Origin: a phage
NCBI GenBank assembly: GCA_024614665.1
Contig: GCA_024614665.1_4861.1
DNA: 64,000 bases
Reading direction: 5' to 3' (one strand)
Shown here: positions 354-22,845 of the stretch, piece after piece
Position numbering within the stretch: position 1 is the first letter of the stretch
Layout: every line of letters starts with the position of its first letter
The notes under the pieces: generated by a model
What the model was told of the DNA's origin: nothing
Seen by the model: the letters and a program-made list of their open reading frames with translations, nothing else
Database searches by the model: none
Program-made: the position numbers and the translations under genes

Positions 354-932
354 ACACGTCGCGCCAAGTTCCGAACAGGGATCACCATCTTCCCAGTCGA
401 AAGCTGACATGCGTGCCCAGTTAAGTTGAATATCCACTTTATCGATTCGACTCAGTCGTACTGCACGATCTTCATTGGTAGCCCATTGCCAAATCTTATC
501 TTCATCGTACTTCGTCGAAATGCCCGATGTTGCTTCGCGGAAGTGGTCATCGGTACGCATATACGCATTCCCTTTGAACACATCCAACCGCGAAAAGCCG
601 TTCTCATAACCAGTCGCCATACCGTCATTATACAACTTACGATATTCCGGCATGGCAACGAGGAATGGCTGTAAAGCAGCATTGGCGAACTGGAATTCAC
701 CCAACTCTTCGATCTGTCTTACCATCTCCACCGCATCGCTATAACGTAATTTACGTGCGGTACTGAATGTTTCACGGAAACGCTCCAGTGAGATTAAGTC
801 CTGACAATGTTCTTTTACACGGTCAACGAGATCGGGTGCCAGGCTAGACAGCGAAAACGATTCTTTGAATACGCTGAGTGCCCCGCTACCTTCGGTCTGT
901 TTCGTCCACACCGTGCTACCTTGTAGCCACAT
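351..932 (-). CDS. hypothetical protein (193 aa), immediately downstream of the beta-prime-like gene
   Basis: ORF track; 13-nt spacing from upstream stop; followed by terminator; no motif recognised. Confidence 0.5.
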   Translation of the reverse strand: MWLQGSTVWTKQTEGSGALSVFKESFSLSSLAPDLVDRVKEHCQDLISLERFRETFSTARKLRYSDAVEMVRQIEELGEFQFANAALQPFLVAMPEYRKLYNDGMATGYENGFSRLDVFKGNAYMRTDDHFREATSGISTKYDEDKIWQWATNEDRAVRLSRIDKVDIQLNWARMSAFDWEDGDPCSELGATC

Positions 933-945
933 TACAATACTCCTA

Positions 946-1200
946 TTAGCCCATCACCGCTTCCAACGGAATGCCTTCTTCATCGTCCTCATCTGCCTCA
1001 ATAAGGAACTGGTTCTGCATACTGATTAGCTCGTTATGTAAAACCATGCCGTGTTCTACGCGGTCCACATCAGTAGAAGACATAAAGCCGTTATCTGGAC
1101 GGAATTGGAGCGCCAACTTCATCTCAGTTTCATCGACTGGCAAACGTACCTGGAACTGGTCACCATCGAAATCCTGTTTGTCCACCGTACACCGTTTCCG
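946..1200 (-). CDS. RNA polymerase beta-prime-like N-terminal module, exon 2 (catalytic DFDGDQ motif); 5' boundary approximate
   Basis: Translation ..KRCTVDKQDFDGDQFQVRLPVDETEMKLALQ matches the bacterial beta-prime region D ([23 protein letters not shown]); ORF track starts it at a GTG (1185) with no RBS, consistent with an internal exon; acidic C-terminal tail. Confidence 0.65.
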   Translation of the reverse strand, partial: RKRCTVDKQDFDGDQFQVRLPVDETEMKLALQFRPDNGFMSSTDVDRVEHGMVLHNELISMQNQFLIEADEDDEEGIPLEAVMG

Positions 1201-1559
1201 TATACAGCAGGTGTGCTAAGACACCCTCCTTATCTCTCGACAAGGCACAGACTATATCTTCACCATAGCTTACGCCTTAGGTGTTCTCCCACTTCGAAGT
1301 CCACTAGGACCCCTACTCGCATTTCAGCGATAGTCGTTGAACATTCCTCTCACGAGGCTTCGCTGCTGATTACCCATTATCACAACCCTTAGCACTATTG
1401 TTTAGCATAGGTCATCGTATCTGTTGTTTCAGACTTTCGTCCCCATTTCTGGTAGATACGCTTTAGGGTTTCCCAGCAATTCAGGAGAATACACATCGGA
1501 GGTTTCCCGTCCGATGGGGCTCTTTTCGAACCGTTAGCCATCTTTATCACACGGTCAGA
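1201..1559 (-). ncRNA. group I self-splicing intron (no homing-endonuclease ORF); boundaries about +/-25 nt
   Basis: Minus strand carries the canonical core elements in canonical order: P-like GAATTGCTGGGAAACC (1466..1481), Q-like AATCAGCAGCG (1361..1371), R-like GTTCAACGACTA (1331..1342), S-like AAGATATAGTC (1250..1260); interrupts beta-prime homology between region C and DFDGDQ; in-frame stops at 1395..1397 and 1216..1218 inside it. Confidence 0.6.
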
Positions 1560-2897
1560 GATACGCAGCGAACACTGGTTAACATCGGTAACAACTTCGT
1601 CGATGAACAGCGTCTGAATAGACAACTGTACCAGCGTTGGGTTACGTAGCGGTATAACCATGATCCCAAGACCGCCTGGGGATTCACGAATCAGTTCTTT
1701 AAAGATTTCGTCTACAAGCGGGTCATACTGCATTGCCGCTTTTGCGACGATACGTTCACACTGCCGCGACGAATAACCCCGGCGTAGCAGTTTGTTCTCG
1801 ATGTGGGTCGACATCAACCCAACCATCCAACGCCATGGTGCTTTTAACTTCCAGGCATCGTGTGGTTCTGAGATAGGTGAGATGGTTGCACGACCACCGA
1901 ACGGAATATGGGTGGAACCCAATTTCGCACGATAGTCACCCGGTTTACCTTCCATAGACTCACGACGGAAGTCCATGTGGAAGTACGTTAACTGACGGTT
2001 CGCTTTCAAAGCGCGACTAATCAGAAAACGCGGTTCGATCGCTTTACGCCGCGTATAAAGTAACGCGATATTTTTCACCGCATCAATAGCACCCGTGAAC
2101 ACTGGGTCTACCATGACACCACGACGACCTTCCTCAGTAACGATAAGTTTAGAGGAGATTAGCGGTAAGTGTCTTGGGAAGAATGCATGGCGTTGCGTTT
2201 CGAATAGCTCCTTCCATTGTAAACGTAAGCGTTCGCCTTCAGCGGCGTTATGCCGATTAGGTGCGAAGATTTCCTTCCAGGCTTCTGGCGTGGTAAGGAT
2301 GTTAAAGATACTAACGTGGTTATCAACCAGATTGCGCAAGCCACGAACGAAACCATGTTCTTCCAATACACGTTTCACAGCATGTGCGCGTTTACCGTCT
2401 GGTTCTTCTATAAGGTAATACGGGTCAATCATCCACATCATCAAGTCATTACCGCGTTCGATAGTGACCTTGTTACGTTCAAACTTCTTCAACTTGCTAT
2501 TAAAGAAAGCATTGAACATTGCCCAGAATCGTGGGTTGACGAAGTTACCCATTTCATCAGGTGCACGTAACCATACATCGGATTCAATTCGATGTTCAGT
2601 TACAACATAGCCACACGTCGGACACTTACAACCGAGATTGTAACGATGCGCGATCGGTGCCGGACAATCCAAACTACAAATCGGTGCAGAGTTCAGTTCT
2701 TCGTCAACGATTCTGTTCTGTACCATGCGATCGATAAGTTCAGCAACCTCGATCGCATCCCCGTTAACAGCGACATCGTTAATAATAGTGGGTGGTTTAA
2801 TACCTTTGGCAGCAGCTTCTATTTGCAAATCGGACAAATAGTTATCCTGACTAACCAACCGGCCGGATATTCCGTAGAATTTTGGTACCTTTCTCAC
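1560..2897 (-). CDS. RNA polymerase beta-prime-like N-terminal module, exon 1; 3' boundary approximate
   Basis: Cys cluster CSLDCPAPIAHRYNLGCKCPTCG (Zn-finger-like); GKPGDYRAKLGSTHIPFGGRATISP matches region B ([27 protein letters not shown]); VIPLRNPTLVQLSIQTLF matches region C (VLLNRAPTLHRLGIQAF); ORF track extends it to 1395 but the last ~55-65 codons are intronic read-through. Confidence 0.65.
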
Positions 2898-15105: not shown

Positions 15106-15143
15106 GTGAAAAAAGAAAAAAAAGAGGGAACCGAAGTTCCCTC
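15106..15143 (-). terminator. rho-independent terminator
   Basis: Minus strand hairpin GAGGGAA-CTTCGG-TTCCCTC then T-run; follows stop of 15158..16105. Confidence 0.6.
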
Positions 15144-16329: not shown

Positions 16330-17151
16330 TCAGCGAAGGGCGTCGGTAGTCTTACCGTGAGAGTTAACCACGTAGACTTCGTCGCCTTTATAAAACAGTT
16401 CGTACAACGCACCGGTACTGATCTGGTTATCAGGATCGTATCCAGATTCTTCTTCGATGCACATTGCGCCAATCAGTTCATCGACTGACCGGTCGCCAGG
16501 GCGAGCGCCTTTTAAAACAGTGACAACGCACTCACCATTAACCCATTGTGAGTGTTCCTGGACATCAGTGAACTCGATAGATGGACCAGGCTCTAATTTG
16601 GCTTGTTGCAGTTCTTCCTGAGTGTAGACAATAATCGCCATGTCGCTATCAGGAGACGGCTTGTACCAACCTAATTTTTCTAAGGGCGTACCGAAACCAA
16701 CGAGTTCGCCGCAGATACTATCCATGGCTTCCGGTTCACATAAATTTGTCGCCAGTACCAAGATAGCGTTGCCCTTATTATCTAGCACGTAGCTAATAAA
16801 CTCGCGTGCGTTGCAGTTAAACACCTCGACCGTTTCCAAATCGGGGATAATAAGGTTGGGGAAAAGCTGCCTCAGGTATACGTGAGCATAAAGCTGACTT
16901 GTAGACAGGCGCTGCTGCCAGCTACAATAATCAGACAAATGCATGGTGTTCGGATCAGGCACATCAGGGGCAACGCGTTTTAACCCCGGATTAAGGGCTA
17001 ACTTTTCATCACCGACAACGATGTCGAAGCGCTCGTTCTCGAGCATTTTTAATGCCTCGCGGAATACACGAGACTTACGGTCACCGATACGAACCTTTTC
17101 ATGTTCGGTAATGATACGGTCACCATCAATCACACGTTTAACTGTAAACAT
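16330..17151 (-). CDS. hypothetical protein (273 aa; start moved to internal ATG)
   Basis: ORF track ORF 16330..17523 has a 124-codon Pro/Gly/Arg-rich N-terminal extension with non-protein-like composition that abuts the tRNA-like elements; ATG at 17151..17149 (MFTVKRVIDG) has AAGGA RBS. Confidence 0.5.
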   Translation of the reverse strand: MFTVKRVIDGDRIITEHEKVRIGDRKSRVFREALKMLENERFDIVVGDEKLALNPGLKRVAPDVPDPNTMHLSDYCSWQQRLSTSQLYAHVYLRQLFPNLIIPDLETVEVFNCNAREFISYVLDNKGNAILVLATNLCEPEAMDSICGELVGFGTPLEKLGWYKPSPDSDMAIIVYTQEELQQAKLEPGPSIEFTDVQEHSQWVNGECVVTVLKGARPGDRSVDELIGAMCIEEESGYDPDNQISTGALYELFYKGDEVYVVNSHGKTTDALR

Positions 17152-17526
17152 GTTGCTTTCCTTCTTACTACTATTGCTGCTTCTATTGGTAGTCCACGAC
17201 ATATCCCTCGTGGGTGGGTTCGGTGTGTAACCGAATAAGTTTTTCTGTTCCCAGGGCAACGCACCAGGCTTAATTGATTTAGTTGGCAAACCAGGAACAG
17301 AAAAGGGTGAACAGACCAGGGCGCGAGGTGGCTCTGTAAGGATGCGTAAGAAAAACCCAAACGGCCCTGGTCTGTAATTTGGCCCGAAGTCACCGTGTCG
17401 GAGGACAGCCCATGCAGGTAGGCGGCAATGGACACGGTGACCGCGGAAGTGGTTCGTGTTACCCTTGACCCGTGTGTGGATACGCGTCTTATTTCGAATG
17501 CCTTCGGGATAAGGATAACACAAATG

Positions 17527-17606
17527 GGGCGAGCAAACGGACGGATTCGAACCGTCGAAATATCCGATTATGAGTCGGGTGTTAATTCCTCTAACTTCGC
17601 TGCTCT
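17527..17606 (-). pseudogene. tRNA-like element (degenerate): T-arm GACGG-TTCGAAT-CCGTC and anticodon-arm-like CCGA-CUCAUAA-UCGG (CAU), but no pairable acceptor stem
   Basis: Hand folding of minus strand; anticodon loop identical to elongator tRNA-Met loops; acceptor stem cannot be formed and the variable region is 6 nt. Confidence 0.35.
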
Positions 17607-17675
17607 TGCTTTGACCGGTCTCGAACCGGCGACCTTCCTCAAAGAGGTTGCTCTACCTACCTGAGCTACAAAGCC
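17607..17675 (-). pseudogene. tRNA-like element (degenerate): canonical acceptor, D-arm and T-arm but anticodon arm shortened by about 4 nt
   Basis: Minus strand GGCTTTG-TA-GCTCAGGTAGGTAGAGC...GCCGG-TTCGAGA-CCGGT-CAAAGCA; only 13 nt where a 17-nt anticodon arm is expected; G1-A72 mismatch. Confidence 0.35.
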
Positions 17676-18450
17676 ATTGTAAGGTGCCGGTGCATCCCGG
17701 CGTGTGTTAGTGCAGTCAGCTCCCTCGGGCCTATCTGCGGCAACACGTTGCCCGGCGCACCGACATATACCACAGTAACCTCGTAAAGTCACTCTGGTAT
17801 TGTTCGTTGCATATTACTAAGTTATCACGTAAACGATTTCACCACTTCCAATAATTAACCTAAATTCATTTCTGAATGCAGGTGATGGACTTCTTCTTCT
17901 GAGCCTGGCCATAAGGTCAGGTCTTAGCGTCTCCAAGCACCACCCGCTATCACGTACATTCGTGGCGTACCGGCCGTATGAGGTACCGCGCCTACGGTGA
18001 CACACAGTCACCCTAACACTGGGAACTCAATCCCATTTGATTATCAGATTGTGGATTTACAGGCGTAGCGTAGCGGCTTAATGGGCCGGTGCTTGCCTGT
18101 CCCCTAGGGACGGTTGTCGTGGAGACGCCAGTCTGTAAGTGGGGCCCTTACGGGAAAACCCATCGCCTGTAAACCAAACATGACTGAATACCCAGAACCG
18201 GACGTTTGAAATCAACATCCTGATGTACTGGAGTATTTCATGCATAAACGTGTCTCGTATCGAATGAGGTTATGACCGGTCAGATACCCAGCATCCTGTA
18301 CAAGCGACCTGGTGCTTTGTGTACCTGGCTGCTACGGATTTATCGGTTTACCGTAGGTCTGAGCTGCTACCGGCTCATGCGGGACATCAACCCGCACAAT
18401 CTGAGTAAGTATCATGGCTCGAATAGGGTTAGTGGGCCGAAGCCCACTGT

Positions 18451-18693
18451 TTAGCCAGCATTGAACGATTCATGAACGACGGTCCCAGCAGGATAGTGCG
18501 TAGTGCCGATAAGAGTAACGGTCAGGGTAAGCCCTTCATCCCAGCGCTCTTTCGGTAACCAGCGGCAGTCCATCCAATGACCACAGTCGGGAGGAATTGC
18601 ACACGCGGCTTGCTCCGTAGGAGCCGCCACGATTATGGAATCAAATTCATCGTACCCGATATCGTCAGTTCGTTCTAGCAAGTACAAATTCAT
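18451..18693 (-). CDS. hypothetical protein (80 aa)
   Basis: ORF track; AGGAG RBS 6 nt upstream of ATG. Confidence 0.45.
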   Translation of the reverse strand: MNLYLLERTDDIGYDEFDSIIVAAPTEQAACAIPPDCGHWMDCRWLPKERWDEGLTLTVTLIGTTHYPAGTVVHESFNAG

Positions 18694-18757
18694 GTTGTTC
18701 TCCTACAGTTGACAAATCTGTGTCTTCTGTGTTGAACCTGAATTCGTTGGCTAAATG

Positions 18758-18833
18758 TGGCGGGGGCACGAGGTTTCGAACCTCGAACCTTCGGTTTTGG
18801 AGACCGGTGCGCTACCAATTGCGCCATACCCCC
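18758..18833 (-). tRNA. tRNA-Trp (anticodon CCA), 76 nt, CCA encoded
   Basis: Hand-folded cloverleaf on minus strand: acceptor GGGGGTA/TGCCCCC, D-arm GCGC-AATTGGTA-GCGC, anticodon arm CCGGT-CUCCAAA-ACCGA (as in E. coli tRNA-Trp except a C27-A43 mismatch), T-arm CGAGG-TTCGAAA-CCTCG, discriminator G, CCA. Confidence 0.8.
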
Positions 18834-18926
18834 AGAATTCTTTAAACGTGTTTATACGGATGCGCTACCCCGTTATCGCAGGCGATTGATGGGGTCAAGC
18901 TTGCGTGCTTCTGACTCCCGCATGAT

Positions 18927-19418
18927 TCACCTCCGTAGTTCGTAAGTGCTAATCTCACCACCGGTGTAGATATCGCATTCGGACGCAATCTCAACAGCAC
19001 GAACCGCATTCGCGCCCATCTTCATCGCACCCAACGCGTACTCGTAACCGCTTCCGGTTGCCAGAGGTGGTGTGGCTTCACTCCACCACAACGACACGTC
19101 GTCTTCACGCTTCCCACCGACTATCGCTTTCCCTGAGGCCAGAAGCATCAGGAAAGTAAAATCCATCTTCGCAGGTAACTGCGAGCTTTGTGTTAACCCC
19201 TTGTAGCCGGGTCTCAAGCGGATAGTTTCCAGCAGGGCCAATTGTCCTGTGATGTCGCCGCTTACCCCGAACACCACAATTCGTTCACCGGTAATCCACC
19301 ACTCCTCGTCAGGAGGACAGACGAATAACTTCTGGGTATTCAGGTTGCAGATATTCGACCCACGGGTTAACTGGCCGTCAGCAGCTAAGACTTTTCCATC
19401 GAACGCTATCGTGGTCAT
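18927..19418 (-). CDS. HslV-like Ntn-hydrolase peptidase (proteasome beta-type, 163 aa)
   Basis: N-terminal MTTIAFDGKVLAADGQ matches HslV [20 protein letters not shown] with Thr directly after Met; C-terminal LATGSGYEYALGAMK...ASECDIYTGGEISTYEL matches HslV IAIGSGGPYAQAAARA...AGDICIYTNHFHTIEEL; no HslU-like ATPase in window. Confidence 0.6.
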   Translation of the reverse strand: MTTIAFDGKVLAADGQLTRGSNICNLNTQKLFVCPPDEEWWITGERIVVFGVSGDITGQLALLETIRLRPGYKGLTQSSQLPAKMDFTFLMLLASGKAIVGGKREDDVSLWWSEATPPLATGSGYEYALGAMKMGANAVRAVEIASECDIYTGGEISTYELRR

Positions 19419-19949
19419 GATTTAATTCTCCGTTTGGTTTATCATACCTCACGCAGAATCTGTAAATTTTAATCAGCCAGGTACCGTCGTTTCTCAACGG
19501 GAGTACCCACCCCTCTCGTCTGTTCCGAGCCGCCAAGATTTGGACCAACCTCCTCGTCGGAGTTATCCCCCAAGTCTGCGGTTCTACACGCAGACCCCTT
19601 TTCGACGCAACGCCGAATTCGAATCAGTTTTGGCCCGACGCCAGAGCGGAATCAGCGATAACTATCGGAGGTAAGTTCAACGACGTCTCTCCGCTGCCCA
19701 GTCCTCTGGCGCTGCCACGGTCAACTCGGATTTTGTCATGGGTGCGCAGTCGACTTTCTCGACACTCTCGCAAACCGAACTACGCCCGACGTAGCACCGT
19801 CGGCAGGTCGGTTATTTACCGAGTACCTGAATGGGTGGTGATTGTCGGAATCCCCGCCGACGCTCACCGGTTCTGTTCCACGGCGAAAGTTTTCCAGAAC
19901 ATAATAAATCACGCAGTGTTAGATTGCGCTTTGTCGAAGACACCACGGT

Positions 19950-19990
19950 AGGTATTTTCGAAAAAGCGTCCTGGGTAACAATCCCAGGAC
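19950..19990 (-). terminator. candidate rho-independent terminator inside ORF-free region
   Basis: Minus strand 8-bp stem GTCCTGGG/CCCAGGAC with 7-nt loop followed by GCUUUUUCG; no protein gene upstream of it. Confidence 0.35.
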
Positions 19991-20349
19991 TTGGAGCCCT
20001 AGCGTGCAGGGTTTAAAAGTGATTGGACCATTGGCGCGGTCAATCGCTATTCGCATATAACAACAAACTCACGTAATCAAAAAATTACCGGCTCGAGGCG
20101 TAGGCGTCCAGGAGCCGGTGAGTCACACAGCAGTGAGTCCCTCTGCGGGGATTTTCGTGGAGCTTGTCGTTGGAATAAAAATCCGTCCCCGGACGGGTTG
20201 GTGGTGTGGGTCGACTTGTCAGAGTCTGCCGTCCAGGGAGGCGGCCACCGAAGCTATGGGTTTTGGACATCGAGTGGTGGTCTGAACACACGATAGGGAA
20301 ACCACGTAAAAAATACACAGGGTACCCAAACCAGGACGTCTGTCCGATC

Positions 20350-20545
20350 ACGATCTCTTAATAAGGATCACGCGCGCGCCCGCACGCGTTTTAAGATCTT
20401 AATATATTAATATATTTATTTATATAAATAATTATAATAATTAAATATAATACCTAAAGGTATTATTATATTTAATATTATTATATATTTTAAAAGATCC
20501 TGGAGGATACGGGTGTGCGCACGCGCACGCGTATAAGGAAAGGGT
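20350..20545. promoter_or_regulatory. AT-rich quasi-palindromic element flanked by alternating purine-pyrimidine GC tracts (candidate origin/unwinding element or promoter hub)
   Basis: About 100 bp of nearly pure A/T (20396..20495) with an inverted repeat around TTAAATATAATACC/GGTATTATTATATTTAA; flanked by CACGCGCGCGCCCGCACGCG (left) and GTGTGCGCACGCGCACGCG (right). Confidence 0.35.
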
Positions 20546-21121
20546 CTTCGACCCGATCCACAGGATCGATCTAAAAAACAATCTAAGTGATTGTTTTAAA
20601 AAGAAATTTTGAGAATTAGATTAAATTATCCCCTAAGGGGGATTTTAGAGTGAGTTAAACAACCCAAAGAACTCGTAAGTAACCGACAGTGTGTGTCGGT
20701 TACAGAACGATCCAGTTTTCACCCAGACATGGCACGAAGTGCTACCCAACGTGTGATCGTCGTCGCCGGCCGCGACCGTCACCTCGGAGCCGAAACGGGA
20801 ATGGCACTCTCGCGCTCTCAACGGCCCGCTGGCGCGATTTTCCGGTAGGGGGAACCCAAGTGTACTGGGTCAGGTATAAATCTCGTTCTAGCGCTTTCTA
20901 GAGCGTTTTTAATAACTGGTTAAAAAACATACAATCCTGAATCCACATTCCCTGAATTTCCTCGCCCCGACAAAAATAAATTCTCTGTCTCGATACATAA
21001 CCCCCTCTAAAACGCACGTAACCGACCCTAGAAAACGATAAACTGCCAAAAACGAGCTACCCTACATCCAGACCACTTAATCGTTTTCTGACGTCTCCTA
21101 GACCCCCTTTAACCGGCCGGT

Positions 21122-21184
21122 TAAAAAATAATCAAAAAAAAATAAAAAAAATAAGATTGGCGTACTCCCCGAAGAGAGTACGCC
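21122..21184 (-). terminator. rho-independent terminator
   Basis: Minus strand hairpin GGCGTACTCTC-TTCG-GGGAGTACGCC (11-bp stem, UUCG loop) then very long T-run. Confidence 0.7.
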
Positions 21185-21191
21185 TAGTGAC

Positions 21192-21701
21192 TTAACACTT
21201 GATGGTATAGCCATCAAGGCCAAGGTGTACTGGTTTTATCCATAACCCTGGCTCCCCGAAAATATTCAGGTCGTAAGTTTGGTAATGCATGATCTTTGCA
21301 GGAACATGCACACCCATGCGCTGCAGAAATTCCCAGACGGCGATGTAGCGTTCACGTGTGATGAACATTAACCCGGAGTCGAACCCGGAACCGATGTCTA
21401 AGAAATTACCAAGAGAACTGTCAAAACTTGACACACCATCTTGAGTAAGTGCGACCAACCCTTTAGTTAAATCTCTGTGGTTGTCAATGAAGTTACAGAG
21501 ATCTACGATGGTTATTTGACCGTAAATACGACGGAGGACGGCAGCAACAGCCAAAATCTCGCTGGTATTTCCGTAGTCACCTAAAGGGTTATGGTCCATC
21601 ATCGCAGTAATTATGCTTGTGTCACAGAGGTCGATTAACCGCTGGTCGTGTACCACCAGGTTAAGACCTTGCCCCACCCGCATGGTTGGCGCAGTAAACA
21701 T
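21192..21701 (-). CDS. hypothetical protein (about 169 aa; start moved to internal ATG)
   Basis: ORF track ORF 21192..21746 overlaps the upstream gene; internal ATG at 21701 (MFTAPTMRV) removes the overlap. Confidence 0.45.
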   Translation of the reverse strand: MFTAPTMRVGQGLNLVVHDQRLIDLCDTSIITAMMDHNPLGDYGNTSEILAVAAVLRRIYGQITIVDLCNFIDNHRDLTKGLVALTQDGVSSFDSSLGNFLDIGSGFDSGLMFITRERYIAVWEFLQRMGVHVPAKIMHYQTYDLNIFGEPGLWIKPVHLGLDGYTIKC

Positions 21702-21711
21702 AGGATGCTCC

Positions 21712-22845
21712 TTACGTTTTGACTGACTGTGAAGGTAATCTGGCATCGTACATTAAAAAGATTTCCAGCAGGCTCATACCCGTCGCGTAAAAGATTTGGT
21801 CTGTGATGACACTCACTAACGCTTCCGGGTCTATTGCATCTACCGCAAAATCACTGTCGAACTGCCAGAACTCGACGTCATCCCCCTTTTCAAACATTGC
21901 GGCATATAGTCCAGGTTTTACACCACGCCGGAACGAAAAGAGTTTTGCGTCAGACTCAGTGTCCTTACCATAGATTTCCCCATCAGTCCGTGTGATCGCT
22001 GCACGTTTACACCGAGTTACCGTAAGGAGCGCACGGTTTGCAGATGCTTGCGATTTAAACGGATAGGGGCCATCGTATGTCGGGACATTCTGGTCGCCTA
22101 AGGCATCAAGTGCCTTACTCCGATAGACTACCGGAGACTTAAAATTACACAGTCGATTCCCTTCGGTAAACATTGTGTATTCGACCTTAACGTCGGTACC
22201 GACGAGGTCAGCAGGGGACACTTTGTAGTGTGCTAATTGTCCCTGCACGCGGCGAGAAAGCATCGATGCCAGGAACGTGTGGTTGCCCTGTGTGCGCAAG
22301 ACATACCCAAACTCTGTGCAGTCGATGATACGAGCGTCCATACGTCGTACAGGCTCCAGCCGGTAAGTCACATCATTCGCTTCGATAAGAAACTGACTGA
22401 TGCTAACATCGCGAGATCGATGTTTGATTGCTTCAAACACTTCACCCGCTTCCAGAATGGCTGGTTCAATTACATTGACCTGGAATGGGAGGGGTTTCGT
22501 CGGCCGTTGACCCATTGTTGTCACTGTCATCGAACGTAGCCATGGATCGTCCTCGCTAGGGTCATTGGAAAGCCAATGTGTTAACCAGCGAGAAAGGTTC
22601 TGTGGAATCGTTGCGGTAGAATATAAAATCACGGTACCCATTATGCCTGCATCGGCCAGCAAGCGTGCGAGTACCGTGTTCATCGAATCGTATTTACCAT
22701 TTCGAAGAATAGGTAATCCTCCGACCTGGACCATTTCGCAGATGACGCCGTGCGGCAGCACCCACATCTTCACTTGTTGGGCAGAATGTATCTGTCCCGT
22801 GCGTAGCTTTTCCTGCCACGCGTGCTTACGTTCATAGTTCATCAT
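21712..22845 (-). CDS. hypothetical protein (377 aa)
   Basis: ORF track. Confidence 0.55.
   Translation of the reverse strand: MMNYERKHAWQEKLRTGQIHSAQQVKMWVLPHGVICEMVQVGGLPILRNGKYDSMNTVLARLLADAGIMGTVILYSTATIPQNLSRWLTHWLSNDPSEDDPWLRSMTVTTMGQRPTKPLPFQVNVIEPAILEAGEVFEAIKHRSRDVSISQFLIEANDVTYRLEPVRRMDARIIDCTEFGYVLRTQGNHTFLASMLSRRVQGQLAHYKVSPADLVGTDVKVEYTMFTEGNRLCNFKSPVVYRSKALDALGDQNVPTYDGPYPFKSQASANRALLTVTRCKRAAITRTDGEIYGKDTESDAKLFSFRRGVKPGLYAAMFEKGDDVEFWQFDSDFAVDAIDPEALVSVITDQIFYATGMSLLEIFLMYDARLPSQSVKT

Follow-up and report, generated by a model that had tools for sequence, protein, structure and literature searches.

The interval 19420-20349 of the window, by which we mean the whole 64,000-nucleotide stretch of SPN3US-like Salmonella jumbo phage DNA analysed here, is probably the gene for a large, highly folded non-coding RNA that is read from the minus strand and would act, by analogy, in the manner of the GOLLD and ROOL RNAs. 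Our confidence differs between the parts of this explanation. That the structured minus-strand RNA is real we regard as highly probable; the transcript boundaries as placed below have about as much in their favour as against them; and a scaffold or assembly function of the GOLLD/ROOL kind, argued from analogy, is offered tentatively. In dozens of GenBank records the region is either unannotated or mis-annotated with spurious small ORFs, and coordinate 1 of several records falls inside the gap, which has hidden its continuity. The features are collected in Table 1; 19473-19990 of the window corresponds approximately to positions 550-1140, plus strand, of NC_027402.

The interval had been described in an earlier note as GC-rich and devoid of any credible gene. 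It is indeed richer in GC than the whole window, albeit by a modest excess (53.0% against 49.0%), and the absence of a gene is fully borne out. The ORFs of 88, 72 and 61 amino acids lie where they had been reported but are not conserved as ORFs. Substitutions sorted by position modulo 3 numbered 48/68/60 and 75/82/82 in the interval (p=0.12 and 0.77), revealing no codon periodicity, whereas the flanking 184-aa gene, which served as a control, gave 23/10/54 and 26/12/85 (p=8e-10 and 4e-21). Only 7 of the 21-24 indels in the interval are multiples of 3. Likewise, the reading frame of Machina gp279, the analogous annotated ORF, is broken by frameshifts in relatives of 92-94% identity. The protein-coding reading of the interval is thus ruled out by periodicity, indels and broken ORFs. 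Pfam searches with the four flanking proteins added no context.

Table 1. Features of the locus, in coordinates of the window
Feature	Position	Strand	Remarks
ORF-free gap	19419-21191		1.77 kb; the interval 19420-20349 is its left half only
Proposed core transcript	19465..20054	-	~590 nt; from G of the TATG motif to just past GCUGA; both ends inferred
Universally conserved 3' domain	19473..19721	-	~250 nt; covariance model R1; nine helices: H1, H1b, H2, H5, H6, H7, H8 and H9 (lower and upper stems)
Invariant GCUGA tail	19473-19477	-	directly after H9
Terminal hairpin H9	19478..19509	-	8-bp lower stem, 2x2 internal loop, 4-bp upper stem, GNRA tetraloop
Near-invariant 30-nt core	19510..19539	-	AUCUUGGCGGCUCGGAA(C)AGACGAGAGGGG; includes hairpin H8; ~1065-1094 of NC_027402
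Invariant hairpin H8	19515-19529	-	CUCG-GAAMAGA-CGAG
Helix H6	19573..19596	-	GGUCUGCG-UGUAGAAC-CGCAGACU on the RNA strand
Conserved UUCAGGU motif and long-range helix	19719..19831	-	GGUACUCGG (19819-19827) with CCGAGUUGACC (19719-19729); encloses a lineage-variable insert
Middle module	19912..19990	-	Ha, Hb, then single-stranded C(C)UAACAC (19916-19922)
Hairpin Hb	19928-19967	-	5' strand is the "U-run" after Ha
Hairpin Ha	19968-19990	-	GTCCTGGG...CCCAGGAC, then GCTTTTT
Candidate promoter P2	20052..20086	-	putative; T-run 20081-20086, TTACG, 11 nt, TTATATGCG; TATG 20057-20054
Hairpin with U6	20087..20119	-	ACCGGCUC...GAGCCGGU, then AAUUUUUU; internal terminator or structural helix
Lineage-variable 5' extension or upstream unit	20120..20313	-	62-76% identity, within Seoulvirus only
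Degenerate copy of the Ha module	20183-20196 (hairpin)	-	followed by AUUUUUAUUCC; in the 5' extension
Candidate promoter P1	20285-20313	-	motif scan; TTTTTTACG 20305-20313, N11, TCGTGTGTT 20285-20293
Island B	20344..20575		DNA element, not part of the RNA
tRNA-Trp	18758-18833	-	same strand as the RNA; ARAGORN; ~640 nt downstream of the RNA
Two weaker tRNA matches	17532-17675		Rfam; outside the interval
Spurious 88-aa ORF	20085..20351	-	two stops in 94%-identical SPFM4
Spurious 72-aa ORF	19733-19951	+	stops in SPAsTU and SNU29
Spurious 61-aa ORF	19831-20016	+	not a gene

Two separate models represent parts of the RNA: R1 the 3' domain, R2 the middle module. In the window R1 scores 248.5 bits; its scores in another 17 non-redundant phages are 143-240 bits. 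Counted over 18 homologues from Seoulvirus, Erskinevirus, Machinavirus and Wellingtonvirus, the four genera of giant Salmonella and Erwinia phages in which the RNA is conserved, 89.7% of cells in the 3' domain pair, as against 76.0% in shuffles (0/500) and 39-46% with slid partners, and 33 of 53 pairs have undergone compensatory change on both sides, as against 8-14 when partners are slid; these covariation counts, like those for the middle module below, come from alignments fitted to the model structure and are therefore biased toward pairing, a bias that the slid-partner controls and alignment-independent folds of single sequences lessen without removing. Helix H6 alone has compensatory changes at 6 of its 8 pairs, as in GUCUGCG/CGCAGAC, CCCAGCG/CGCUGGG and GUACACGG/CCGUGUAC. 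The terminal hairpin H9 is 96.8% paired and altered on both sides at 8 of 12 pairs, and its tetraloop occurs as GAGA, GUGA, GCGA or GGGA. Between these helices lies the core, which is identical at nearly every position in 18-19 sequences from the four genera and occurs once in the 64-kb window. A 1-nt indel within the core, where the window's lineage has one more C, is incompatible with coding constraint there. In the fold model, the loops of H2 and H6 and CCUAACAC are predicted to be reactive toward SHAPE and DMS reagents. A long-range pairing of G(G/A)CC at 19629-19632 with G(G/A)UC at 19543-19546 was rejected, as it shows no covariation and about half of the sequences would mismatch when compared by eye; a self-complementary (kissing) role for GGUC/GAUC is a weak lead.

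The same helices reveal which strand is the RNA. On the minus strand the modelled helices contain 119 G.U combinations and 27 A.C, an asymmetry that identifies this strand as the RNA; in H6, for instance, A.C mismatches of the plus strand are G.U pairs on the minus strand. RNAalifold gave -39.9 kcal/mol for the minus strand but -19.95 for the plus strand, whose helices show C.A mismatches. We therefore find it hardly credible that the interval is purely a DNA-level element, such as a protein-binding array or a structure of single-stranded DNA, or else a decayed protein gene, with no functional RNA. The interval does adjoin a probable cis-acting DNA site, and single sequences fold equally well on both strands (z=-4.5 and -5.0), which makes folding energy uninformative as a test of strand. 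Nevertheless, the compensatory changes and the excess of G.U over A.C indicate selection on a single-stranded minus-strand molecule, and an unsystematic look at the interval noticed no repeats of the binding-array type. A decayed gene is further contradicted by the lack of periodicity, the broken frames and the single-nucleotide indel inside the invariant core.

Farther toward the 5' end, the middle module is supported in the same manner. All 13 of 13 homologues, when folded alone, adopt the same two-hairpin shape of Ha and Hb. R2 finds one copy per phage, scoring 29-82 bits on the minus strand compared with 22-28 on the plus strand; 84.9% of the module's cells pair (91.5% in Hb) compared with 35-59% when slid, and double changes affect 10 of 22 pairs compared with 2-3 when slid. 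The long-range helix that lies between the module and the 3' domain is predicted by RNAalifold and displays a G-C to A-U change in SNU29; its arrangement was read by eye in the sequences of Machina, SNU4, L012, L023 and phiEaH2. Structure in 19722-19911 and in the 5' extension derives from RNAalifold with four sequences, a number with which no strand asymmetry is discernible over 19745-20330.

This fold gives a different meaning to two hairpins that had been taken for the ends of short RNAs. The minus-strand hairpin at 19968-19990 with its GCTTTTT is present and was caught by our terminator scan. It is, however, the internal helix Ha, and the supposed U-run is engaged in Hb, where it pairs to an A-run in every homologue having letters at those columns, consistent with covariation and with the 13 single-sequence folds. 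Some co-transcriptional termination at Ha is possible. At 19574-19596 the plus strand does contain the inverted repeat GTCTGCG/CGCAGAC, with CCCCTTTT after it; yet as a plus-strand terminator (19574-19604) it offers four T only and is not accepted by the scan, and it corresponds to the internal helix H6 of the minus-strand RNA. The idea of an unannotated non-coding RNA, with no protein, has thus survived, whereas short transcripts ending on both strands give way to one structured RNA of the minus strand.

The 5' end of the core transcript was assigned to 20054 because of the promoter-like TATG motif in P2. The layout of P2 equals that of the TTTTTT(C)ACG-N11-TCTTATAG sites at 15114, 14654 and 9112, which are located 42-66 nt upstream of genes and just after terminators. 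Late promoters of phiKZ read T-3ATG+1, and its middle promoters carry an AT-rich motif near -24 (PMC7598289); judged by this rule, which is taken from another phage, P2 has its T-run ~25-30 nt upstream of TATG. Within Seoulvirus, conservation of the block 20040-20079 reaches 86%, and 20047-20077 is 88% identical to phiEaH2. TAGTATG was rejected as a general promoter word, since it is not enriched upstream of genes in the window; the longer T-run...TATAG/TATG architecture fits better. All candidate promoters sit between the AT-rich element and the RNA, and a proposed origin of transcripts within that element found no support. The 3' end was placed where conservation and synteny stop, as relatives carry different genes right after GCUGA. 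From TATG to GCUGA the distance is ~410-735 nt in the other genera. The 5' part varies in length from ~190 to ~600 nt among genera, whereas the 3' domain is found in all; the 5' extension is missing from Machinavirus, where the unit is ~400 nt shorter. We found no transcriptome of SPN3US-like phages in the literature searched.

Several short minus-strand RNAs could conceivably be made here instead, each starting at a TATG-type promoter (~20283, 20054, perhaps 19900) and ending at the next hairpin with a U-run (20087-20119 with U6; Ha with U5), but this we consider unlikely. In essence, this transfers the earlier note's proposal to a single strand. The region does have an excess of terminator-like hairpins (17 in 16500-22000 by the terminator scan versus 5.7 +/- 2.2 in shuffles), and the hairpin at 20087-20119 is directly followed by a promoter-like motif, the same terminator-then-promoter layout that occurs between genes at 9.1, 15.1 and 16.2 kb. 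Both closing pairs of this hairpin covary in Seoulvirus (A-U/U-A/C-G and U-A/C-G), and phiEaH2 possesses an equivalent plus U9. This hairpin could be a true internal terminator that sets off an upstream unit, and more than one minus-strand transcript is therefore possible. Termination at Ha is harder to reconcile with the data. Directly behind Ha, the U5 never varies; an equally invariant CGA comes after it, and in every homologue the U5 forms base pairs within Hb, while genuine terminators of this phage have U-runs of at least 7 and no conserved sequence after them. In Machinavirus the promoter-like TATG lies only ~35 nt upstream of Ha, so that Ha cannot end a separate upstream RNA there; an RNA ended by Ha would measure only ~55 nt in Machina. 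A TATG-containing motif, UUUAGUAUGUUC at 19897-19907, could suggest a further start, but its GUUCUG is the predicted 5' strand of a hairpin, the motif is not present in Machinavirus and Wellingtonvirus, and TAGTATG is, as stated, no general promoter word. Spacing, too, favours a single unit: in three genera the core and island B are 790-850 nt apart despite sequence divergence.

At its other end, the one long RNA that we favour lacks a canonical terminator, and in each genome 20-50 nt separate it from the next gene, which leaves room for read-through or for a processed leader. Even so, it is very unlikely that the RNA is a giant cis-acting 5' leader, similar to a riboswitch or attenuator, for the gene immediately downstream. 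That gene differs between genomes (HslV-like in the window, unrelated inserted ORFs in SPFM4, SPAsTU and SNU29, other small ORFs in Machina and ChrisDB), and synteny breaks exactly after GCUGA. Moreover, ~0.6 kb with at least nine helices far exceeds known leaders. With no constant downstream gene and no match to a riboswitch family, the riboswitch/cis-regulatory leader class was rejected.

Comparison of genomes delimits where the RNA occurs. The whole gap is colinear with SPAsTU (70%) and pEa_SNUABM_29 (67%), whereas the HslV-like gene next to it can hardly be aligned as DNA, and conserved islands extend into Erskinevirus, Machinavirus and Wellingtonvirus. In Kwan and Wellington, a homing-type HNH endonuclease cassette that is not present in the 99%-identical L023 sits directly beside the core; these two phages get by with 634 nt inserted between H7 and the core, which means that not every phage strictly requires the RNA to be uninterrupted. 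The unique, near-invariant core and the HNH cassette beside it may be counted, at the level of sequence, as a sign of functional constraint. A 20-base core pattern retrieved 12 viral, 14 metagenomic and 3 genomic loci. A bacterial relative of the RNA was rejected because the eight loci concerned (L024-27, L031, L038-40; soil, Acidobacteriota, Acidimicrobiales) have no similarity beyond the seed and their number equals the chance expectation. The taxonomic range is very narrow, comprising four related genera and uncultivated relatives, and the near-invariant core provides a handy diagnostic marker for this phage clade. The syntenic Derbicusvirus phages CR5, Derbicus and Phobos yielded no RNA with R1 (filters off) or R2. 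As this related group does without it, the RNA is not essential to the chimallivirus lifestyle.

On the side from which transcription would come, the RNA is neighboured by island B. This element contains a 114-bp block of almost pure A+T (20388-20501), the sole such block in 64 kb, with a central palindrome and inverted alternating-CG flanks, and a dense cluster of GATC (8 in 250 bp versus 0.61 expected, P ~3e-7); its flanks are conserved in the four genera. Its sequence is suggestive of a DNA unwinding element with Dam sites or of a pac site. The Derbicusvirus phages that lack the RNA still have an AT-rich element with repeats here, which marks the locus as a conserved cis-acting DNA site. 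Might the RNA serve island B, either as a primer or activator for a replication origin there or as a packaging RNA that, like phi29 pRNA, works with the terminase? In all cases 440-850 nt separate the RNA from island B, and the gene for the terminase large subunit is nearby, ~4 kb away from the RNA. We nonetheless hold such service to be quite unlikely, given that inferred transcription heads away from island B and so would not prime there, that the Derbicusvirus element works without the RNA, that no Rfam pRNA match was obtained, and that island B is itself only a putative origin or pac site. GC skew on a 2-kb scale showed no clear switch at the gap.

In the mechanism that we propose, the phage's own non-virion RNA polymerase would start at the TATG-type promoter, with G at 20054 and perhaps another start near 20283; transcription would end at the invariant GCUGA near 19473, giving ~590 nt and up to ~810 nt. 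Its 5' part would be lineage-variable and partly built of duplicated modules. The product would be stable and act in trans by virtue of its three-dimensional fold, forming an assembly of RNA alone or of RNA with protein on the analogy of GOLLD and ROOL, rather than by antisense pairing or as a terminator, and the invariant core would be a binding or active site. A bolder version, which we regard as rather doubtful, sees here a large "ornate" RNA of a new class, with no earlier report from nucleus-forming jumbo phages, whose core and GNRA-capped 3' domain form a catalytic centre or a self-assembling RNA-only complex (compare the GOLLD/ROOL nanocages), with a role in genome replication/packaging or in translation control, encoded as it is beside an AT-rich, GATC-bearing element resembling an ori or pac site and beside phage tRNA genes.

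To our knowledge, very few non-coding RNAs of bacteria or phages exceed ~400 nt and have elaborate conserved folds: the rRNAs, RNase P, group I and II introns, tmRNA, OLE, GOLLD, ROOL, raiA and a handful more. Each of these large RNAs, as far as we know, has proved to be a ribozyme, the core of a ribonucleoprotein or, most recently, a self-assembling RNA cage. SPN3US is a genetically tractable model phage, and the Chimalliviridae form a phage nucleus, so that transcription is physically apart from translation. A further class of large RNA in SPN3US, within these nucleus-forming Chimalliviridae, would be notable.

None of the known classes compared here accounts for the RNA. The Rfam scan that the earlier note had suggested was run (release 15, cmscan) and found no known family in the interval: no match in the gap at the gathering threshold, at E<=5 over 16800-21400, at E<=10 over 19440-20340 or, in four other lineages, at E<=1. 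A group I intron at 1228-1537 of the window was, by contrast, picked up with this library. ARAGORN found only the tRNA-Trp, with no tRNA or tmRNA in the gap. A group I or II intron or a small self-cleaving ribozyme was rejected, as there was no Rfam match at E<=10 and no interrupted gene is seen in the flanks; membership in the GOLLD or ROOL family was likewise rejected, as the curated covariance models of Rfam 15 do not match. We found no description of this structured RNA in the literature searched. The IMG/VR screen of Fremin et al. has only motifs of 30-151 nt and may include fragments of this RNA.

Intrinsic terminators resemble the locus in their GC-rich hairpins with T/U-rich sequence, as at 19968-19990 (minus) and 19574-19604 (plus); here, in contrast, the stems covary as components of one bigger structure, the U5 takes part in pairing and the hairpin of the plus strand is not on the RNA strand. 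The pRNA of phi29, ~170 nt long, belongs to small protein-primed podophages and acts as an RNA assembly, a ring. It too is a structured phage RNA encoded beside a packaging or replication landmark; our RNA differs in matching no Rfam family, and any link to the jumbo-phage terminase would be hypothetical. The neighbouring genes and tRNA genes run in the same direction as the proposed RNA, an arrangement that recalls T4 species 1 and 2, stable RNAs of the T4 tRNA cluster (~120-140 nt) that are processed from a tRNA precursor. These are also phage-encoded and are co-located and co-oriented with phage tRNA genes, but the present RNA exceeds them in length several-fold, has a protein gene between it and tRNA-Trp and apparently possesses a (candidate) promoter of its own.

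The closest parallels are with GOLLD and ROOL. GOLLD is a large (>400 nt) multi-helix phage non-coding RNA near tRNA genes, with a conserved 3' part and a less conserved 5' part (PMC12286853). Our RNA shares this layout, which is a likeness of layout only and not proof of membership, since it has no homology to GOLLD in sequence or structure and the Rfam model is silent even at E<=10. It is also shorter (~0.4-0.8 kb), and a multimeric cage would be hypothetical in its case; and while GOLLD resides in prophages and phages of Lactobacillales, mycobacteria and marine bacteria, this RNA belongs to virulent nucleus-forming jumbo phages of Enterobacterales. From ROOL (Rumen-Originating, Ornate, Large) it is set apart by the lack of an Rfam match, by a fold in which no pseudoknots are established and by its very narrow taxonomic range. 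Nevertheless, both are ~0.6 kb long, both are encoded by phages or prophages near tRNA islands, and both have a complex fold supported by covariation and no identified protein partner (PMC12286853). The RNA described here would be a new way into the question, posed by GOLLD and ROOL too, of what purpose large phage RNAs serve.

The phage carrying the window is a Seoulvirus (SPN3US-like, about 240 kb) in the family of nucleus-forming jumbo phages, and Salmonella phages 1252 and SaP7 are 98% identical to the window. The window's longest stretch without ORFs is the gap 19419-21191, and the interval 19420-20349 makes up its left half; the gap is unannotated in nearly all GenBank relatives and contains coordinate 1 of several records (SPN3US, SEGD1, JN03, EC001). 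Immediately downstream of the 184-aa gene on the right border, a strong canonical terminator at 21150-21184 (-), with an 11-bp stem GGCGTACTCTC/GGGAGTACGCC and a long U-run, insulates the gap from transcription of the upstream operon. The interval had been described as GC-rich; it does exceed the window average, but only mildly (G+C 53.0% versus 49.0%).

The three ORFs listed in the earlier note are present, and its view that none is credible was upheld. When the interval was compared with SPAsTU and pEa_SNUABM_29 (SNU29), substitutions were spread evenly over codon positions (48/68/60, p=0.12, and 75/82/82, p=0.77, respectively), and only 7 of the 21-24 indels were multiples of three. In contrast, the flanking 184-aa gene, our control, showed 23/10/54 and 26/12/85 (p=8e-10 and 4e-21) and zero indels. 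The 88-aa ORF is interrupted by two stop codons in SPFM4 (94% identical), and the 72-aa ORF by stops in both SPAsTU and SNU29. ORFs called by other annotators over homologous DNA are probably just as unsupported. "Hypothetical protein" CDSs cover the RNA region in Asesino (gp288/289), Machina (gp279), ChrisDB (gp287, possibly gp288), phiEaH2 (two ORFs) and SNU29 (pEaSNUABM29_00166), at the relatives' loci L004, L006, L007, L009 and L003. These small CDSs are probably spurious; the one checked, Machina gp279, fails as a gene, being frameshifted in 92-94%-identical relatives and showing substitutions without codon bias.

Conservation of the whole gap exceeds expectation: it aligns colinearly, at 70% to SPAsTU and 67% to SNU29; the HslV-like neighbour is barely alignable at the DNA level in the same comparison. 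More distant genera retain three islands, A (about 19462-19721), B (20344-20546) and C (about 20844-20922). Island A, inside the interval, holds a near-invariant 30-nt core (plus strand CCCCTCTCGTCT(G)TTCCGAGCCGCCAAGAT), flanked by hairpins whose sequence differs while pairing is kept. The core shows signs of functional constraint. It is found a single time in the window, and a 1-nt indel between lineages excludes a coding constraint.

RNAalifold on 11 sequences gave -39.9 kcal/mol for the minus strand, with 46 pairs, 20 of them showing compensatory changes, versus -19.95 kcal/mol for the plus strand, where C.A and A.C mismatches fell in the same helices. We built a covariance model, R1, from an explicit structure of nine helices (H1-H9; 254 positions, 53 pairs). 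It matched 18 non-redundant homologues, every one at full length, with 143-249 bits. In the R1 alignment, standard pairs occupied 89.7% of cells, as compared with 76.0% after shuffling (0/500 shuffles were as high) and 39-46% on sliding the 3' partners by 1-3 columns. Both sides had changed at 33 of the 53 pairs (8-14 when slid), and the covariation score was 0.443 (control, at most 0.122). This alignment had been fitted to the model. Three checks are independent of the fitting and agree with it: the slid controls, MAFFT-only analyses and single-sequence folds. An 821-nt stretch folds far better than its shuffles (z=-4.5), as does its complement. Within the R1 pairs, G.U (119) outnumbers A.C (27), the signature of a single-stranded minus-strand molecule; a reading in which the interval acts as DNA only was ranked lower. 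Taken together, comparative sequence analysis shows a conserved, structured RNA predicted from the minus strand of the interval.

This RNA changes the meaning of the hairpins, which the earlier note had taken as ends of short transcripts on both strands. Terminator-like hairpins are indeed enriched around the gap (17 versus 5.7 +/- 2.2 in shuffles). The plus strand does carry the inverted repeat GTCTGCG/CGCAGAC with CCCCTTTT after it, but this repeat lies outside the set because only four T follow its stem. Rather than a terminator, it is helix H6 (19573-19596) of the minus-strand RNA, with compensatory changes at 6 of 8 pairs. Likewise present is the minus-strand hairpin at 19968-19990, with GCTTTTT behind it; its U-run, however, is paired, as the 5' strand of a second, long hairpin. 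The first hairpin (Ha) is immediately followed by the second (Hb, 19928-19967), in which the U-run pairs with ACAAAG or AAAAAG. Ha, Hb and a single-stranded C(C)UAACAC appeared in the lone-sequence folds of 13/13 homologues tested. A second covariance model, R2, found exactly one match per phage, on the RNA strand, with 84.9% of cells paired (35-59% slid) and double changes at 10 of 22 pairs (2-3 slid). Genuine terminators of this genome, unlike Ha and its U-run, have U-runs of at least 7 and nothing conserved downstream. Readings of the interval as several small RNAs or as a leader also ranked lower than a single RNA. The earlier observation is partly confirmed and its interpretation partly supported.

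Two classes of promoter-like motif recur between genes of the window, just downstream of terminators (see table). The class (A/G)ATATTAYCT..GTGAG resembles the phiKZ early consensus. Three copies of the other (15114, 14654, 9112) lie 42-66 nt upstream of genes, and it possibly serves the middle/late non-virion RNA polymerase. Both could be used for genome-wide annotation of transcription units. In phiKZ, T-3ATG+1 defines late promoters and an AT-rich motif near -24 defines middle promoters (PMC7598289). At least one such TATG motif precedes Ha in every genus; in Machina only about 35 nt separate the two, which places Ha inside the RNA there.

Borders of the gap and promoter-like motifs
Feature	Position	Strand	Remark
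HslV-like gene	18927-19418	minus	left border of gap
184-aa gene	21192-21746	minus	right border of gap
Early-type motif GATAT(AT)ATTAYCT, also (A/G)ATATTAYCT..GTGAG	16174, 13207, 4982, 4889	minus	intergenic reading
TTTTTT(C)ACG-N11-TCTTATAG	15114, 14654, 9112, 5128	minus	intergenic reading
P1	20313-20285		candidate promoter; architecture of TTTTTT(C)ACG-N11-TCTTATAG
P2	20086-20052		candidate promoter; same architecture plus canonical TATG, G at 20054

Downstream of an invariant GCUGA, which follows the terminal hairpin H9, inserted genes differ between genomes, and we infer the 3' boundary at this motif. The predicted RNA would then span 20054 to about 19465 in the window, a length of about 590 nt; a start at P1 would give about 810 nt, and other genera 410-735 nt. 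Despite sequence divergence, the core and island B lie 790-850 nt apart in Seoulvirus, Erskinevirus and Wellingtonvirus; the spacing is shorter in UViG L012 (about 640 nt), the SNUABM_4 group (about 600 nt) and Machina (438 nt). Upstream of P2 the RNA region varies between lineages. This part includes a degenerate copy of the Ha module (20183-20196) and may form a unit of its own, with its end at hairpin 20087-20119 plus U6.

Kwan and Wellington carry a 634-nt cassette immediately 5' of the core, and it encodes an HNH endonuclease. The Kwan cassette (locus L005, 1172-1805; gene KWAN_291) lies on the strand of the RNA, replaces 21 nt (cf. 3872-3892 of L023) and is missing from the 99%-identical UViG L023; R1 matches the two halves of the RNA flanking it. 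Homing endonucleases typically target strongly constrained sequence, and the cassette looks like a homing-endonuclease insertion into the RNA gene. The RNA thus tolerates splitting at that junction. Between H7 and the core, the tetranucleotide at 19543-19546 (-) reads GGUC or GAUC across homologues (GGUU in L012), all self-complementary if G.U is allowed. Such alternation was the basis for inferring intermolecular kissing contacts in OLE and GOLLD, and here is a weak hint of dimerisation.

Island B (20344-20575), kept in four genera, includes a 114-bp block of almost pure A+T (20388-20501) that has no counterpart in the rest of the 64 kb. It has a short central palindrome (AATACCTAAAGGTATT in the window, TATCCCTACGGGATA in other genera), inverted alternating-CG/CA flanks, conserved borders GATCTCTTAATAAGGATCACGCGCG and TTTTAAAAGATCCTGGAGGA, and 8 GATC in 250 bp versus 0.61 expected (P about 3e-7). 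Its sequence suggests either a replication origin, with an unwinding element and Dam sites, or a pac site; that the RNA itself is an origin or packaging RNA was placed below our preferred reading. The right half of the gap (20560-21191) is ORF-free and conserved, with 20680-20759 being 80-91% identical to SPAsTU and SNU29. It contains covarying hairpins (20627-20643, 20681-20701), a block conserved in Machina (20844-20873) and, at 20860-21160, more G.U pairs on the minus strand (70 versus 18); a second RNA or regulatory elements may lie there.

A core-pattern scan of IMG/VR, JGI metagenomes and 185,579 species genomes returned genuine matches only in jumbo phages of this clade. Eight other loci showed no similarity outside the seed, about the number expected by chance. 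In Derbicusvirus (CR5, Derbicus, Phobos), which is more distant, synteny is kept and the neighbouring 377-aa gene is 40-42% identical, but neither RNA module was found. The syntenic site carries a different AT-rich element (CR5 L043 5654-6200; L041 5720-6138; L042 5661-6211) with iteron-like repeats (GGGGGGATCAAGGGGGGATGGATAA..., repeated GGATAA and GAATGAATG), followed in CR5 and Phobos by an early-promoter-like ATATATATTACTT. This element suggests that a cis-acting DNA site is conserved at the locus, whether or not the RNA is present.

The Rfam scan proposed in the earlier note (release 15) gave no match to the RNA interval at E<=10 on either strand, nor to four other lineages at E<=1; the same library detects the window's group I intron and tRNAs. 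The intron (RF00028, 1228-1537 (-), 65.5 bits, full-length model match) overlaps the 3' end of a 500-aa ORF at 1395-2897 (-). Two adjacent weak tRNA-model matches (17532-17675 (-), 30.6 and 38.1 bits, without an ARAGORN call) sit in the ORF-poor stretch 16900-18450, upstream of tRNA-Trp; relatives annotate tRNA-Tyr nearby, and these may be degenerate or unusual tRNAs. The literature searched yielded neither a description of the RNA nor a transcriptome for these phages. A large IMG/VR screen lists motifs of 30-151 nt only, among which fragments of the RNA may occur.

In conclusion, the real feature of the interval is, as predicted from its conservation and covariation, a new family of large structured phage RNA. 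The proposed molecule would be a stable RNA whose fold allows it to act in trans; its putative functional centre would comprise the invariant core, where H8 sits in a multi-helix junction, and the GNRA-capped H9. It merits experimental follow-up in SPN3US. It fails the covariance-model test for membership in GOLLD or ROOL, and our claim is that it works like these RNAs, not that it is one of them. They are nonetheless its closest kind: large, ornate RNAs of unknown function, encoded by phages and prophages near tRNA islands, just as here tRNA-Trp, encoded by the same strand, follows about 640 nt downstream.
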